Origin: an uncultured Rhizobiaceae bacterium
GTDB taxonomy: Bacteria; Pseudomonadota; Alphaproteobacteria; UBA828
Assembly: GCA_964429775.1 (NCBI GenBank)
Contig: CAYSDJ010000011.1
Span: 2,692 to 66,691, forward strand
DNA: 64,000 nt
Direction: 5' to 3'
Shown here: piece by piece, positions 43,174 through 48,028 of the stretch
Layout of the letters: every line of letters starts with the position of its first letter
Position numbering within the stretch: position 1 is the stretch's first letter
Translations under genes and position numbers: made by a program
Notes under the pieces: model-generated
The model's input: the letters and a program-made list of their open reading frames with translations, nothing else
What the model was told of the DNA's origin: nothing
Databases searched by the model: none

Positions 43174-43437
43174 GAGCTGATTCCTGATTGCCTGGAGTGC
43201 GCCGCGATCTTTTCGAGGCTGATTTCGCCACCATTATGCCGCCCCATCGGGATCAGGTCGATGGTCAGTCTCATGGCTCTATTCATTGCGGTAGGGGAAC
43301 TGACTTTTGCCTCCCGGTCCAGTGCCTTAGCATTTGGGAGTACCAGACTTAGGCGATGAAACACTATGTACCTTCATTGCGCCATAGACACCTGTCAACA
43401 TCTGTAATCTACTGATTTTGTTATATTAATTGCGGTG

Positions 43438-43453
43438 TTAATGTTTCATTAAT
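43438..43453 (+). promoter_or_regulatory. CtrA-like full site TTAA-N7-TTAAT
   Basis: ttaatgtttcattaat versus consensus TTAA-N7-TTAAC; also TTAA-N6-TTAACC at 43484-43499 and GANTC at 43514. Confidence 0.35.
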
Positions 43454-43521
43454 GTCTCACTTCTAGGATCGGGTTAAGAGAAATTAAGTTTTGTTAACCT
43501 AAGATCGTTCATGATTCGATT

Positions 43522-45309
43522 GTGGTGACGGCAAATAAAAATATTGGCGGGACATCTACGCCTTTCGATGAAATGGAATCGCTTGGCGCCCAATCAGGCC
43601 AGTCACCGCCCAACTTCCTGTCTGTCCTCAATGTTTTAAGATTTCTGCAATTGCGGCATTCGCTCAAGTGGACGATCGTTCTTCCCATTCCACTCATCAT
43701 CGCCGTCGCCATAATTTGTATTTCCATATTGGTGCCCAAATTGACGGCGGACAATGCGCGAGAAACCGCTGTGAATTCGGCAATTCAAACCGCGACCCAG
43801 TTCCGGATATTGCGCGAATATTATACCGAATCCGTGATTTCCAAGGCGATGAAGAATGGTGCGTTGTCGCCGAGCCATGATCACCAGACGGATTCAAACG
43901 CCATTCCGCTGCCGGCCACCTTCATTCATGACATGAGTGATCTGCTCAAAAACGAAAACACCACAATGAGTCTCTATAGCGCCCTGCCTTTTCCGTTTCG
44001 AAACGTGCGGGTTCTGGACGATTTTCAGAGGGAAGCGTGGCGTCAGCTTTCCATAGACCCAGAGAGCATCTTCACACGCCAGGTAGATCGCGATGGCAGC
44101 AATTTCTTGCGCGTTGCCATCGCCGACCGGATGGTCACCGAGGCCTGCGTGAACTGTCACAACAGCCACCCCGATTCGCCGAAGACGGATTGGAAACTTG
44201 GGGACGTCCGCGGCATTCTGGAAATCAATACTTCCATTGACGACCAACTCGCCGCCGGGGCGCATCTCGCCAACATATTGATTCTGATCGCCGGGATTGG
44301 CGGCGGCTTTGTCATGCTCATTGCGCTATTCCTCGGGCGGCGCATATCCCTTCCTTTGCTCGGCATGGCACAGACCATGACAGATATTGCGGACGGCAAG
44401 GAAAGTGTCAGAATTTCCGGCGCGGAGAGGCGCGATGAGATTGGTGCGACGGCGCGTGCGCTGGAAGTGTTCAAGCGGAGCGTCGACACCATCAAGAAAA
44501 ACGAAGCCGACCTTCTCCGTATGCGCGACACGCTGGAGCAACGTGTGGTCGAACGGACATATGAATTGGATCATGCGCTGCATATCGCAGAGGAGGCGAA
44601 TCGGGCGAAATCTGATTTTTTGGCGACAATTAGCCACGAATTGCGAACGCCGCTAAATGCCATTATCGGCTTCTCGGAGATTATGAAAAGTGAGGCGATC
44701 GGGCCGATTAAAGCGGAGAAATATCAGGAATATGCGACCGACATAAACTATTCCGGTCAACACTTGCTGGATTTGATAAACGATATTTTGGACCTTACCA
44801 AGGTGGAAGCGGGCAAGTTTGAATTGAAAGAGGAAAATGTCGATGTCGCCGGCACCATCAACGCCTGCGTGGTCATGGTTAGTGAAGCGGCGCGCTCAGC
44901 CAGTCTTACCGTTGAACAATTAATGCCCGATCGGGCGCCCGTTTTGCGCGCAGATCCGCGACTGTTGAAGCAGATCTTGGTCAATCTTCTTTCCAACGCC
45001 GTCAAATTTACTGAAGCGGGTGGCAATATCTCTATCCGCGCATATACATCGGAGGCGGGTGAATTCGTCATTCAGGTTTCCGATACCGGCATCGGCATCA
45101 AGCCTGAAAATATTTCGAAAGTGATGGCGGTGTTCGGTCAGGTCGACAATTCCCTCAGCCGCAAACATGAGGGCTCCGGGCTTGGCTTACCATTGACCAA
45201 GGGTCTGGTCGAACGGCACGGTGGGTCGCTGACGCTGGAAAGCGAGGTCGGTGTGGGCACGGTCGTCACTCTGCAATTCCCGACCTACCGAATTGTTGGC
45301 GGGGCATAA
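43522..45309 (+). CDS. sensor histidine kinase with a periplasmic CXXCH (putative c-type haem, DUF3365/Tll0287-like) sensor domain, HAMP, HisKA and HATPase_c
   Basis: TM1 aa~50-72 and TM2 aa~245-265 flank a domain with EACVNCHNSHPD; ISHELRTPLN H-box; GSGLGL G2 box. The start is uncertain: GTG 43522 or ATG 43573. Confidence 0.8.
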   Translation: MVTANKNIGGTSTPFDEMESLGAQSGQSPPNFLSVLNVLRFLQLRHSLKWTIVLPIPLIIAVAIICISILVPKLTADNARETAVNSAIQTATQFRILREYYTESVISKAMKNGALSPSHDHQTDSNAIPLPATFIHDMSDLLKNENTTMSLYSALPFPFRNVRVLDDFQREAWRQLSIDPESIFTRQVDRDGSNFLRVAIADRMVTEACVNCHNSHPDSPKTDWKLGDVRGILEINTSIDDQLAAGAHLANILILIAGIGGGFVMLIALFLGRRISLPLLGMAQTMTDIADGKESVRISGAERRDEIGATARALEVFKRSVDTIKKNEADLLRMRDTLEQRVVERTYELDHALHIAEEANRAKSDFLATISHELRTPLNAIIGFSEIMKSEAIGPIKAEKYQEYATDINYSGQHLLDLINDILDLTKVEAGKFELKEENVDVAGTINACVVMVSEAARSASLTVEQLMPDRAPVLRADPRLLKQILVNLLSNAVKFTEAGGNISIRAYTSEAGEFVIQVSDTGIGIKPENISKVMAVFGQVDNSLSRKHEGSGLGLPLTKGLVERHGGSLTLESEVGVGTVVTLQFPTYRIVGGA

Positions 45310-45340
45310 ATTTTGCTTGCGACGGCGAATCTGTGTCGCG

Positions 45341-46354
45341 TTAGGCCACGGATTTTTGCTGTTCGGCGGCGCGTGGCTTGGTACGCAATTCCTTCAGCTC
45401 GAACGGATCGGCGTGAATATCTTGCATATCCGCGCCGGCGAGGAAGGCGCGTTTTTTGGCGCCGTGCACCATCGGCGGGTTGCCGCAGAGATAGACGCGC
45501 CACCCCTTGAGGTTTTTGAGTTCCGCGAGCGCCACCTCGTCGGCCCGGCCACGGGTGTAGCCGAGCGGTGGGTTTTCGCCCGAGAGACAGCCGGTATATC
45601 TGAAATTGGGATAGGTCTGGGCAAGATCAAACAGGCTGTCGCGGTGGTATAGGCCGGCCGGCTCGCGCGAGCCATGATAGAGCCGGACCTCGCCGCTATG
45701 GCCGTCGTTCAGCGCATCGCGGGCAATTGCCACGAGTGGCGCGAGACCGGTGCCGCTGCCGATGAGCAGCAGGTTTTTCTCGGGCGCACCGGGCAGGTAG
45801 AAGCAGGCACCGTTCGGGCCCTGGATATCGACACTTTCGCCGATCTTCATCTCATTGAAGGCCCAGTTACTCATTTTGCCGCCGGGCAGGCGCTTGATAT
45901 GGAATTCGAGATAGCGGTCGAGGTTGGGCACGCTGGCGAGGGAGTAGGAACGGCACAGGCCATCGCCGCGGCGTAAGTTGAGAAACTGCCCGGCGTGGTA
46001 ATAGAGCGGCGTCGCCGGCTCGAGCATAACGCGGCAAATATCGGGCGCCAGCAATTCGCGTGACTGAACCAGGGCGCGCTGATAGATCGCCGCGTCCTCG
46101 GCCTGCACGACCCGGATATCGCCCTCGGGCACGCACAGGCAGGAGAGAAAATAGCCCTCGACGCGCAGTGTCTCGCGTAAGCCCGCTTGCGCTTTTTCCG
46201 GCACACCGCCATCGGGCGTGCGCATCATGCAGTTGAAGCAGGTGCCCTTGCGGCACGAATAGTTCGGTTCCTCGCCGTTGCGCAGCAGGGTATCGAGGAC
46301 CGATTCCGATGGCTCGGCCTCGTAAACCCTGTTGCTGAATTCTACGCTCGGCAT
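45341..46354 (-). CDS. ferredoxin--NAD(P)H reductase with an N-terminal plant-type 2Fe-2S domain (BenC/XylA-like), likely the trHbN reductase
   Basis: CRKGTCFNC...C Fe-S cluster; RSYSLAS FAD motif; LLLIGSGTGLAP NAD motif; ATG 46354 lies 24 nt after the trHbN stop with SD AGCAGG. Confidence 0.8.
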   Translation of the reverse strand: MPSVEFSNRVYEAEPSESVLDTLLRNGEEPNYSCRKGTCFNCMMRTPDGGVPEKAQAGLRETLRVEGYFLSCLCVPEGDIRVVQAEDAAIYQRALVQSRELLAPDICRVMLEPATPLYYHAGQFLNLRRGDGLCRSYSLASVPNLDRYLEFHIKRLPGGKMSNWAFNEMKIGESVDIQGPNGACFYLPGAPEKNLLLIGSGTGLAPLVAIARDALNDGHSGEVRLYHGSREPAGLYHRDSLFDLAQTYPNFRYTGCLSGENPPLGYTRGRADEVALAELKNLKGWRVYLCGNPPMVHGAKKRAFLAGADMQDIHADPFELKELRTKPRAAEQQKSVA

Positions 46355-46378
46355 GGTTTGCCTGCTTCGCACTGTTGC

Positions 46379-46747
46379 CTATTGGTTGAGAACGTCGCCC
46401 TTCGTGCTGGCGGCAACGGACATGATTTCACCGGCGATATTCTCCGGCACGCCGAGCTCGCTCAGCGTATCCTGCAAATGGCCGGCCACGGCGTCGAAGT
46501 GCGAGCTGTTGAGGCCCTTTTCCACGAGCTTGGCGTGGGCGGTACGCATATCCTTGCCGGTATATTCATTTGGCCCGCCGAACACCATCGTCAGGAAAGC
46601 TTTCTGCTTTTCGCGCTGGGCGTCCATATCGGTATCATCAAAAAATCCGCTGATAGAATCATCGCTCAATACTTTGCGATAGAACACATCGACCGCGGCA
46701 TTCACGGCAGCTTCGCCACCAATTTGCTGATAGATCGACCCGGTCAT
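46379..46747 (-). CDS. glbN: group I truncated haemoglobin (trHbN)
   Basis: 122 aa; 2-on-2 globin signature (FY..V..D......FF, GGP..Y.G, proximal His in MRTAHAKL). Confidence 0.85.
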   Translation of the reverse strand: MTGSIYQQIGGEAAVNAAVDVFYRKVLSDDSISGFFDDTDMDAQREKQKAFLTMVFGGPNEYTGKDMRTAHAKLVEKGLNSSHFDAVAGHLQDTLSELGVPENIAGEIMSVAASTKGDVLNQ

Positions 46748-46848
46748 TTTGACATTCCCCTAAAGTGATAAATATCTCGCAGTGGAGCTACGAATATCCT
46801 CCGAAGGCGTTACCAAAGGGTGAAAATCAGCCGAAAATTGATAGCGGA

Positions 46849-47325
46849 CTAAGGCCCCACAGCCTGTGCAGCAATGGCGGCAAAGATGGCGTCGAGCTCG
46901 GCCGCCATCTCATCCAGGGCGGCACTCTTATAGGGCGCGAAAACCGCTGTAGGTGTGCGGTAGGTCAGATTGGCGCTGCCGTCCGCATTGGCGGTGAGAT
47001 AGAAGCGGAGCGGCGCCTCGATACCGGATTGGATGCTCGCATCCAGCATGCGCACAGCATAGTCGTTGCGAAATACCCCGATCACCATATTGCCGGCGAT
47101 GTCGATGCCGCGCCGCTTGGCCCCGGCGCTGGCGCTGGCCTTGCTCACCGTGAACATGCCATTGTCCTTGATCGCGCTGCCGAGCGCCGTTACCAGCTCG
47201 GCGAAGGATTTCCCGCTGGCCAGGCTGCGCGTGCCGGGATGGGGCCATTCGGCGGCGCCGAGTGGCGGCGCCAGCAGGAACAGGAATAAGGCAGCGAAAA
47301 TAGAGTGTTTTAAAAAGCGCGGCAT
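46849..47325 (-). CDS. secreted DUF302-like hypothetical protein
   Basis: Signal peptide; weak DUF302-like similarity. Confidence 0.5.
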   Translation of the reverse strand: MPRFLKHSIFAALFLFLLAPPLGAAEWPHPGTRSLASGKSFAELVTALGSAIKDNGMFTVSKASASAGAKRRGIDIAGNMVIGVFRNDYAVRMLDASIQSGIEAPLRFYLTANADGSANLTYRTPTAVFAPYKSAALDEMAAELDAIFAAIAAQAVGP

Positions 47326-47407
47326 GGTCTCTCCCGGTCTTGAGCAATTGTTTTAATATCGGGATTATAGAGGGCGATTTGTGCACGCGGGATAACAGTC
47401 GGGTGAA

Positions 47408-48028
47408 GTGGTGGCGAGAGGATTTCTAAGCGATAGCCGGCAGGCGGGCGAGGTGCTTTCCAGGCTCGCGGCGGAAGATGCCGCGTGTCTGCCTCTATTG
47501 TCCGCATCTGAACTTCCGCCGTTTCTCGAGGTGGCGCGCGGGCTCAGCTACCGCACCGCTCGGGGAGAAGTCGGCGCCGGCGCGCGCGCGGTGCGGCAGG
47601 ATTTCGATATCTGCATGTCGCCGCCCCGGCCTGGTCTGTTGTGGGACTTGGTGGCGCGGGTGGAGGAATTTCTCGGCAAAGCTCTGGCCGAAAACCAGCC
47701 TGCCTTGCTGGACGGGCCGCTCATCCTCAATGACCTCGTCGTCCAGCACTATCAAGCCGGTTCGCTCGGCATCACCGCACACCGCGATCATGTTCGCTAC
47801 ACGGGCTTGGTCGCGTTGATTCTACTGTCAGGTGAAGGCGGGCGCTTTTATGCCTGCACTGAACGCTCAGGCCTTGATGCGCGCGAAATTCCCTGGCGCC
47901 CGGGCGACATGCTTTTGATGCGCGCTCCCGGCTTCGCCGAACGCACCGACCGTCCATTTCATTATTTGTGCGATGTGACGACGGAACGCTACAGCATCGG
48001 TCTGCGCCACGACACGCAAGAAGATTAA
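47408..48028 (+). CDS. hypothetical protein, probably a 2OG-Fe(II) oxygenase (AlkB-like fold)
   Basis: H-R-D-H...H triad candidates (ITAHRDH, FHYL) and RYSIGLRH 2OG-binding Arg motif. Confidence 0.5.

Follow-up and report, generated by a model that had tools for sequence, protein, structure and literature searches.

A truncated haemoglobin and a three-domain iron-sulfur flavoprotein encoded side by side in an uncultured Rhizobiaceae bacterium: a candidate split nitric oxide dioxygenase

We have analysed a stretch of 64,000 nucleotides (nt), referred to throughout as the window, from contig CAYSDJ010000011.1 of an uncultured Rhizobiaceae bacterium, in which glbN, the gene of a group I truncated haemoglobin (trHb), is followed on the same strand by the gene of a three-domain iron-sulfur flavoprotein reductase. 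The two products are very probably dedicated partners, as suggested by the co-conservation of their genes, by their co-diversification, and by the natural fusion of relatives of the reductase to a globin. We consider it likely, with a probability of about 0.6, that the cassette consists of a group I trHb and its own electron donor, acting together as a split nitric oxide (NO) dioxygenase. The locus comprises the following features:

46379..46747, minus strand: glbN, a group I (N-type) truncated haemoglobin of 122 amino acids (aa), from Pfam Bac_globin, PDB sequence matches and an AF2 model
45341..46354, minus strand: three-domain reductase of 337 aa, with [2Fe-2S] ferredoxin, FAD and NAD(P)H domains and a conserved C-terminal tail, from Pfam, invariant motifs and AF2
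46355..46378, minus strand: intergenic junction of 24 nt, with a weak Shine-Dalgarno sequence and no terminator, from the sequence
46748..46848, minus strand: upstream intergenic region (promoter/leader), from the alignment of relatives and motif scans

These coordinates and sizes, the 24-nt gap and the location of both genes on the minus strand agree with a preliminary description of this DNA. The open reading frame (ORF) of glbN starts with ATG and stops with TAG. For the reductase, a mechanical ORF list opens the frame at a GTG at 46372, which would give 343 aa; we place the start at the ATG at 46354 because homologues begin there (for example P0001, with 'MPSVEF'), and 337 aa is also the length in public gene calls from contigs of the window's own population. 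The junction reads gcaacagtgcgaagcaggcaaacc on the coding strand. A Shine-Dalgarno sequence, which the preliminary description had placed before the reductase, is present 6 nt ahead of the ATG, but it is weak (GCAGG), and no terminator-like hairpin was found on the coding strand between the two genes. Because the junction is 24 nt long, carries a weak Shine-Dalgarno sequence and holds no terminator, glbN and the reductase gene are predicted to be co-transcribed.

The evidence for a partnership comes from related loci. A scan of reference genomes, with one genome per species, returned 551 stretches with a gene related to that of the reductase, of which the 80 best (48-92% identity) were analysed. 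An N-type globin lies directly upstream on the same strand at 55 of the 80 loci; another protein of about 140 aa, scoring above the Bac_globin threshold, lies directly downstream at 12; and at 5 the reductase and a C-terminal globin form a single ORF of 509-553 aa. A truncated globin is therefore adjoining or fused at 72/80 loci, which come from Alpha- and Gammaproteobacteria and from one bin labelled Phycisphaerae. At one locus (L039) the globin is 2.5 kb from the reductase, at four no globin is found nearby, and three are cut off by a contig end. In the orthologues, tblastn aligns the two genes mostly 10-85 nt apart, and estimated gaps go down to 3-6 nt, with an annotated gap of 4 nt in Methylocystis. 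The separate pair is found in the cultured Pelagibius litoralis DSM 21314 (L014), and in Methylocystis rosea it resides on a plasmid (genes F7D13_RS17695/17700), with a reductase 39% identical to that of the window. A survey from the side of the globin covered 80 metagenome loci (59-93% identity), 75 of which had enough downstream sequence to be judged, and in 48 of these the reductase lies immediately downstream of the trHb of group N (trHbN). Profiling of the adjacency in other genomes had been proposed in the preliminary description, and the pairing held in both surveys.

Co-conservation is accompanied by signs of co-diversification. A neighbour-joining tree of the reductases groups the loci with a downstream globin in one clade and the fusions in another, such that the reductase clades track the type of the partner globin; the four loci with no globin nearby are dispersed singly amid globin-linked reductases. 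The distance matrices of globin and reductase are correlated (Mantel r = 0.67), with none of 2000 permutations reaching a value as high. No third conserved gene emerged within 4 kb on either side of the reductase from all-against-all clustering of the neighbouring ORFs. These results bear directly on the possibility that the adjacency has no function and that the actual partner of the reductase is an oxygenase or P450 whose gene lies elsewhere, as is usual for reductases of the BenC class. The domain architecture is indeed that of oxygenase reductases, and the four loci with no nearby globin would fit; however, no oxygenase gene is conserved nearby, the reductase clades follow the globin type, and adjacency or fusion over such a taxonomic range is hardly to be expected by chance, so that we regard this explanation as close to refuted.

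Both proteins can be assigned with some precision. The 122-aa globin matches PF01152 Bac_globin in Pfam with E=3e-21 (76.2 bits, cut-off 21). In a PDB sequence search the best match is Synechocystis GlbN (1.7e-34), followed by Chlamydomonas LI637/THB1 and Mycobacterium tuberculosis HbN (4.5e-23); overall, group I structures rank at 1e-34 to 1e-21 and group II structures at 1e-8 or weaker. The AF2 model (pLDDT 83.9) has THB1 (6cii) as its top structural match, with a TM of 0.90, and gives TM values of 0.81-0.90 to group I and about 0.7-0.8 to group II structures. By sequence ranking and predicted fold, the window globin is thus assigned to group I, with a 2-on-2 fold, and binding of haem b, together with reversible binding of O2 and NO, would be expected of such a protein. 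The key residues, positioned through alignment to Synechocystis GlbN, are TyrB10 (Y23), GlnE7 (Q44), LysE10 (K47), GlnE11 (Q48) and the proximal HisF8 (H71). The lysine at E10 is also present in THB1, whereas Synechocystis GlbN has histidine there; in the same alignment the counterpart of the haem-linking His117 of Synechocystis GlbN is absent from the window globin. Y23, Q44, K47, Q48, H71 and the Gly-Gly hinges G10-G11 and G57-G58 are kept in 123-134 of 134 relatives.

In the reductase, Pfam recognizes Fer2 (residues 8-76), FAD_binding_6 (109-186) and NAD_binding_1 (197-300), and this order, in line with the fold matches, bears out the BenC-class architecture claimed at the outset. The motifs quoted in the preliminary description are likewise in place, as RSYS at 135-138 and GSGTGLAPL at 199-207. 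Among 20 homologues with 53-92% identity, the cluster cysteines C34, C39, C42 and C72 (C-x4-C-x2-C...C) are invariant, as are Y137-S138 of the flavin motif R135-S-Y137-S138; the flavin motif as a whole, the nucleotide motif G199-x-G201-x-G203-LAPL (GxGxGxxP) and C290-G291 of the CG-PPM motif are invariant or nearly so. The closest PDB sequence match is GcoB (5ogx, 1.9e-47), and the top fold matches of the AF2 model (pLDDT 86.5) are 5ogx, 7c3a, 4wqm and 1krh; GcoB, carbazole dioxygenase reductase, T4moF and BenC come nearest among solved proteins when sequence and fold are taken together. Flavohaemoglobin covers the FAD/NAD half of the reductase only (Hmp 1gvh, 8.6e-14, plus a fold match).

Attempts to place the reductase in a named NCBIfam family failed throughout: it scores 175 bits against a cut-off of 338 for PRK05713, 123 against 500 for MmoC, 121 against 430 for the BenC equivalog, and 100 against 402 for AntC. 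Ten more globin-linked reductases also fall below the PRK05713 cut-off (151-210 bits), and relatives carry generic labels such as '2Fe-2S iron-sulfur cluster binding domain-containing protein' and 'NAD(P)H-flavin reductase'. By these scores the window protein lies outside every named equivalog tried, and the family to which it appears to belong is one that has no curated name. Typical of this family is a conserved C-terminal tail, IHADPFELKELR..PR, encoded at 45341-45418 of the window (residues 313-337). The alignment to GcoB ends at residue 304, ahead of the tail, and the end of the tail (residues 323-337) is modelled at low confidence; the tail may serve to dock the globin.

The fused members of the family suggest how the electrons might travel. 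In the fusions the globin domain, C-terminal to the reductase, carries a CxxC...CxxC tail; a further reductase-globin fusion is found in the protein database (P0073). A search with this type of globin domain recovered standalone copies, copies joined to the complete reductase, and copies joined to a Fer2 domain alone. The Fer2-globin fusions, of about 280-290 aa, are represented by many proteins, among them numerous metagenomic relatives and those of the cultured Marinobacter salinus and Halospina denitrificans. Because the globin is also fused to Fer2 alone, the [2Fe-2S] cluster would be the immediate donor to the haem, and the recurrence of such fusions is the best pointer to an electron path that would run from NAD(P)H to FAD, to [2Fe-2S], and to haem. 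In M. salinus (CP017715.1, L164 4001-4864) the fusion protein is 287 aa long, and P0285 and P0329 are further examples; the Fer2-globin fusion gene directly follows a Robl_LC7 gene, and farther upstream there is a small gene of the ATP_bind_1 (GTPase-like) type.

On a wider scale, we would give even odds to the proposition that the reductases of this family diversified jointly with three or more globin lineages (an upstream N-type, a divergent downstream type of about 140 aa, and a type of about 190 aa with the CxxC...CxxC tail), that they have been fused to globins repeatedly, and that reduction of trHbs is their near-exclusive and ancestral job. If true, the flavohaemoglobin principle would have been invented independently a second time, by means of a 2-on-2 globin and an iron-sulfur relay. 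No family-level description of reductases tied to trHbs was found in the searchable (open-access) literature.

In the mechanism that we propose for the window pair, the reductase would accept hydride from NAD(P)H onto FAD, from which single electrons would pass through its own [2Fe-2S] cluster and reduce the ferric haem of the globin. Once ferrous, the globin would bind O2 and convert NO to nitrate, and the ferric haem would then be reset by the reductase, the pair being in effect a split, Fe-S-containing functional analogue of flavohaemoglobin. We infer the direct transfer from Fe-S cluster to haem, the identity of NO as the substrate, and the dioxygenation itself; the split two-component arrangement put forward in the preliminary description is supported. 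NO dioxygenation seems to us, with some reserve, the probable main physiological reaction, because the conserved O2-stabilising distal pocket is shared with the NO dioxygenases HbN and THB1, because NsrR-like boxes and NsrR homologues occur with members of the family, and because of the case of Legionella pneumophila.

The first of these arguments also bears on whether the pair might be a reductive enzyme working independently of O2, as an NO, nitrite or hydroxylamine reductase in oxygen-poor water. Such a cycle would be suited by a steady supply of electrons, many carriers are bins from marine water-column or sediment metagenomes, and NO reductase activity has been reported for haemoglobins including flavohaemoglobin-type proteins. 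A group I trHb also lies directly upstream of nirB-nirD on the plasmid NZ_CP111059.1 of Chondrinema litorale (Bacteroidota; L163 3989-7340), and this is another tie of trHbN to nitrogen-oxide metabolism, nirBD being the assimilatory nitrite reductase. However, TyrB10, GlnE7 and GlnE11 make up the O2-stabilising pocket of the NO dioxygenases HbN and THB1, and anaerobic reduction of NO by globins, as known from flavohaemoglobin, is generally much slower than dioxygenation; we therefore think a reductive role improbable.

NsrR-like boxes precede 8 of 52 readable orthologous operons, all of them in gammaproteobacterial bins, as compared to 0.67 +/- 0.75 in shuffles, and genes for NsrR homologues lie next to the fusion locus L061 and within L039. 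NsrR is a sensor of NO, not of O2. In L. pneumophila, Rodionov et al. [quoted passage not shown] Gardner 2012 (PMC3820574) repeats this proposal and extends it to ferredoxin reductases as donors to truncated haemoglobins in general.

Three alphaproteobacterial operons (L027, L028 and L044) have FNR-type boxes upstream, at -69 to -71. Such boxes would suit control by O2, and a different division of labour, in which the reductase would be the globin's own met-haemoglobin reductase, keeping the haem ferrous and no more, and the globin would serve O2 itself, to buffer, deliver, scavenge or reduce it in a microaerobic cell. The pairing evidence is silent on the substrate, the window lineage has no NO-responsive operator, and roles of trHbN related to terminal oxidases have been proposed by some authors. 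Against this, the FNR-type boxes are not enriched across the orthologues (8 loci, as compared to 6.2 +/- 2.3 in shuffles), NsrR-like boxes or NsrR genes go with gammaproteobacterial and fusion members, and NsrR control has been reported in Legionella; moreover, a stoichiometric O2 carrier needs slow reduction only, for which a reductase with three cofactors that co-evolves with it or is fused to it is not obviously required. Service to O2 is for these reasons an unlikely main function of the pair. NnrR patterns, too, show no enrichment across the orthologues.

A further possible control element is seen on the plasmid NZ_CP044330.1 of M. rosea (L161 3844-6312), where a sigma factor gene and an 81-aa hypothetical gene stand directly before the pair, which may be under dedicated sigma/anti-sigma control. 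The sigma factor is of the extracytoplasmic-function (ECF) type, and as such it would be in keeping with a globin acting as a peroxidase or as a peroxynitrite-detoxifying haem protein in oxidative stress, with the reductase recycling it; peroxidase activity and an oxidative-stress role have in fact been reported for a truncated haemoglobin of Roseobacter denitrificans (PMC4319818). That protein, however, derives from glbO, and is thus probably of group O rather than N, and has no reductase neighbour (PMC4319818); since, in addition, no peroxide-stress genes are conserved near the pair, we consider a peroxidase function very improbable.

In the window itself, no NsrR box (ATGYAT-N5-ATRCAT, up to 2 mismatches) was detected in the 250 nt upstream of glbN, motif scans of the upstream region gave no FNR/DNR or NnrR box, no NsrR-like gene was found within the 64 kb, and a sigma-70 promoter scan of 45100-47500 gave no match. 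What the upstream region does contain is a 37-nt motif at 46791-46827 (minus strand), ATTTTCACCCTTTGGTAACGCCTTCGGAGGATATTCG, common to eight close relatives of the window and kept even in L083, whose remaining upstream sequence aligns with no other relative. The motif has no match among the consensus sequences of NO and O2 regulators that were tried.

Several points weigh against a dedicated pair devoted to the dioxygenation of NO. The partnership is not obligatory: about a third of the assessable metagenome loci (26/75) encode a standalone trHbN. Along the scale of globin identity, the first assessable locus without the reductase stands at 66% (L096), and the picture is mixed below about 69%. 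A Mantel correlation such as that reported above could also be expected from shared vertical descent alone. By analogy with THB1, LysE10 suggests a hexacoordinate resting state of the globin, which could slow the binding of ligands. The window and its close relatives have none of the NsrR, FNR and NnrR boxes. Many carriers are marine bins, some with names that in our reading hint at O2-poor water, where low O2 would limit a dioxygenase. Finally, in the open-access literature we found no biochemical test of any member of this kind of pair.

The genes flanking the pair were also considered as possible components of the system. The adjoining haem-c sensor kinase noted in the preliminary description is there, convergent with the pair at 43522-45309, and is a histidine kinase with a Tll0287-like sensor, HAMP, HisKA and HATPase domains, and a CxxCH motif (CVNCH). 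Every contig of the window's own population carries it. It is absent from the relative L001 (92% identity to the window reductase), where 69 nt stand in for window 43206-45340, a 2.1-kb indel comprising the kinase and a 316-nt AT-rich upstream region. We therefore place the kinase outside the module; the two-component genes near other loci vary in type and position. A DUF302 gene (46849-47325) was rejected as a third member of the operon, being conserved in the closest relatives only (L001-L004); a terminator-like hairpin at 46860-46844 overlaps its stop codon.

Some individual loci depart from the general pattern. At about 3140-3314 of L002, whose reductase is 80% identical to that of the window, the globin lacks roughly residues 20-85 and the reductase is intact; this globin is either a pseudogene or an assembly artefact. 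In the metagenome contigs L126, L135 and L141, a standalone trHbN, 61-64% identical to that of the window, lies beside shared ORFs (506 aa in L135) that by eye resemble phage portal/scaffold proteins. In L153, L157, L158 and L160 a standalone trHbN is followed by an ORF of 178 aa with the motif HHPKED, which to the eye looks hemerythrin-like. In two Methylococcales bins (L045 5065-5967, L058 3813-4724) a protein of about 300 aa is encoded directly upstream of the reductase-globin fusion; that of L045 combines Globin PF00042 with Bac_globin PF01152, and that of L058 is similar in sequence. At L021 (781-2400) and L023 (4376-5995), where the globin is of the downstream type, the reductase gene comes directly after the genes of a Urate_ox_N (PF06181) membrane protein and of a DUF1499 protein, in what may be a four-gene cluster.

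These results can be considered in relation to what has been published. The pair in the window is real and well supported. It is one among hundreds of cases of a kind that earlier papers had predicted, and the result for the window itself is confirmatory, not surprising. The part that may be new is the view across the family: these reductases make up a separate family with no name of its own, linked to globins of three types and in some members naturally fused to them. For about two decades it has been asked which reductase works with bacterial truncated haemoglobins in vivo, and in-vitro work on trHbs borrows reductases such as the ferredoxin-NADP+ reductase (FNR) of E. coli or the spinach ferredoxin/FNR system (PMC3820574). 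The statement in the preliminary description that trHbN lacks a known cognate reductase stands as far as biochemistry is concerned, but not at the level of prediction, as Legionella glbN-lpg2536 is in print. The surveys and reviews of trHbs PMC4720485, PMC7475203, PMC11904497 and PMC4319818 do not mention a reductase partner or fusion; they include a 2016 survey of 1107 truncated haemoglobins. The 'novel haemoglobin' of Acinetobacter baumannii (PMC11836069) was considered as a precedent and rejected, as it is an unrelated 3-on-3 globin with a degenerate FAD-like domain.

The present locus and its hundreds of relatives provide a specific candidate reductase that can be cloned together with its globin, and the cultured carriers (P. 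litoralis and M. rosea, with Marinobacter for the Fer2 fusions) make the question of the cognate reductase easily testable. If the pair is an NO dioxygenase, it would represent an unrecognised sink of NO in Alpha- and Gammaproteobacteria, many of the loci deriving from marine, sediment and other environmental metagenomes.

Among known systems, the most similar by published description is glbN-lpg2536 of Legionella, which is also bicistronic, a ferredoxin-reductase gene coming after the trHb gene in the same orientation. It differs in its reported control by NsrR, a prediction made for this one organism; eight gammaproteobacterial orthologues likewise have NsrR-like boxes, and the window has none. 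The globin of the window shares with M. tuberculosis trHbN (GlbN) the group I fold and TyrB10/GlnE11; the latter is the best-studied NO dioxygenase among bacterial trHbs, with no established cognate reductase (PMC3820574). The window globin differs from it in GlnE7 and LysE10, in a reductase encoded next door, and in having no counterpart of the N-terminal extension that makes up about the first 10 residues in M. tuberculosis (query residue 4 corresponds to chain residue 14). With Chlamydomonas THB1 it has group I membership and LysE10 in common. THB1, in which LysE10 is a distal ligand, is active as an NO dioxygenase and is reduced by the FAD domain of nitrate reductase, its specific partner flavoenzyme; in THB1, as in the nitrate reductase-trHb fusion of raphidophytes, the partner is a bifunctional nitrate reductase, as opposed to an Fe-S flavoprotein dedicated to the globin, and there is no operon.

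The reductase, for its part, has the three-domain order, the cofactor motifs and the fold of the GcoB/BenC class. GcoB, likewise of three domains, directly reduces the haem protein P450 GcoA, and therefore this architecture can serve a haem protein with no intermediary. The acceptors in GcoAB and in the BenC class are a P450 or a Rieske oxygenase, whereas the acceptor proposed for the window reductase, which has the conserved tail, is a globin. A functional parallel is the flavohaemoglobin (Hmp/FHb), the canonical NO dioxygenase, which likewise joins a haem globin to an FNR-like FAD/NAD(P)H module and takes its electrons from NAD(P)H. Hmp, however, is one polypeptide, with a 3-on-3 globin at the N-terminus and no Fe-S cluster, whereas in the window the globin is separate and 2-on-2, and the reductase has an additional Fer2 domain, whose cluster would stand between flavin and haem; in the relatives of 509-553 aa the globin is C-terminal. 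The window pair is thus not a member of the Hmp family, but it may work like one.

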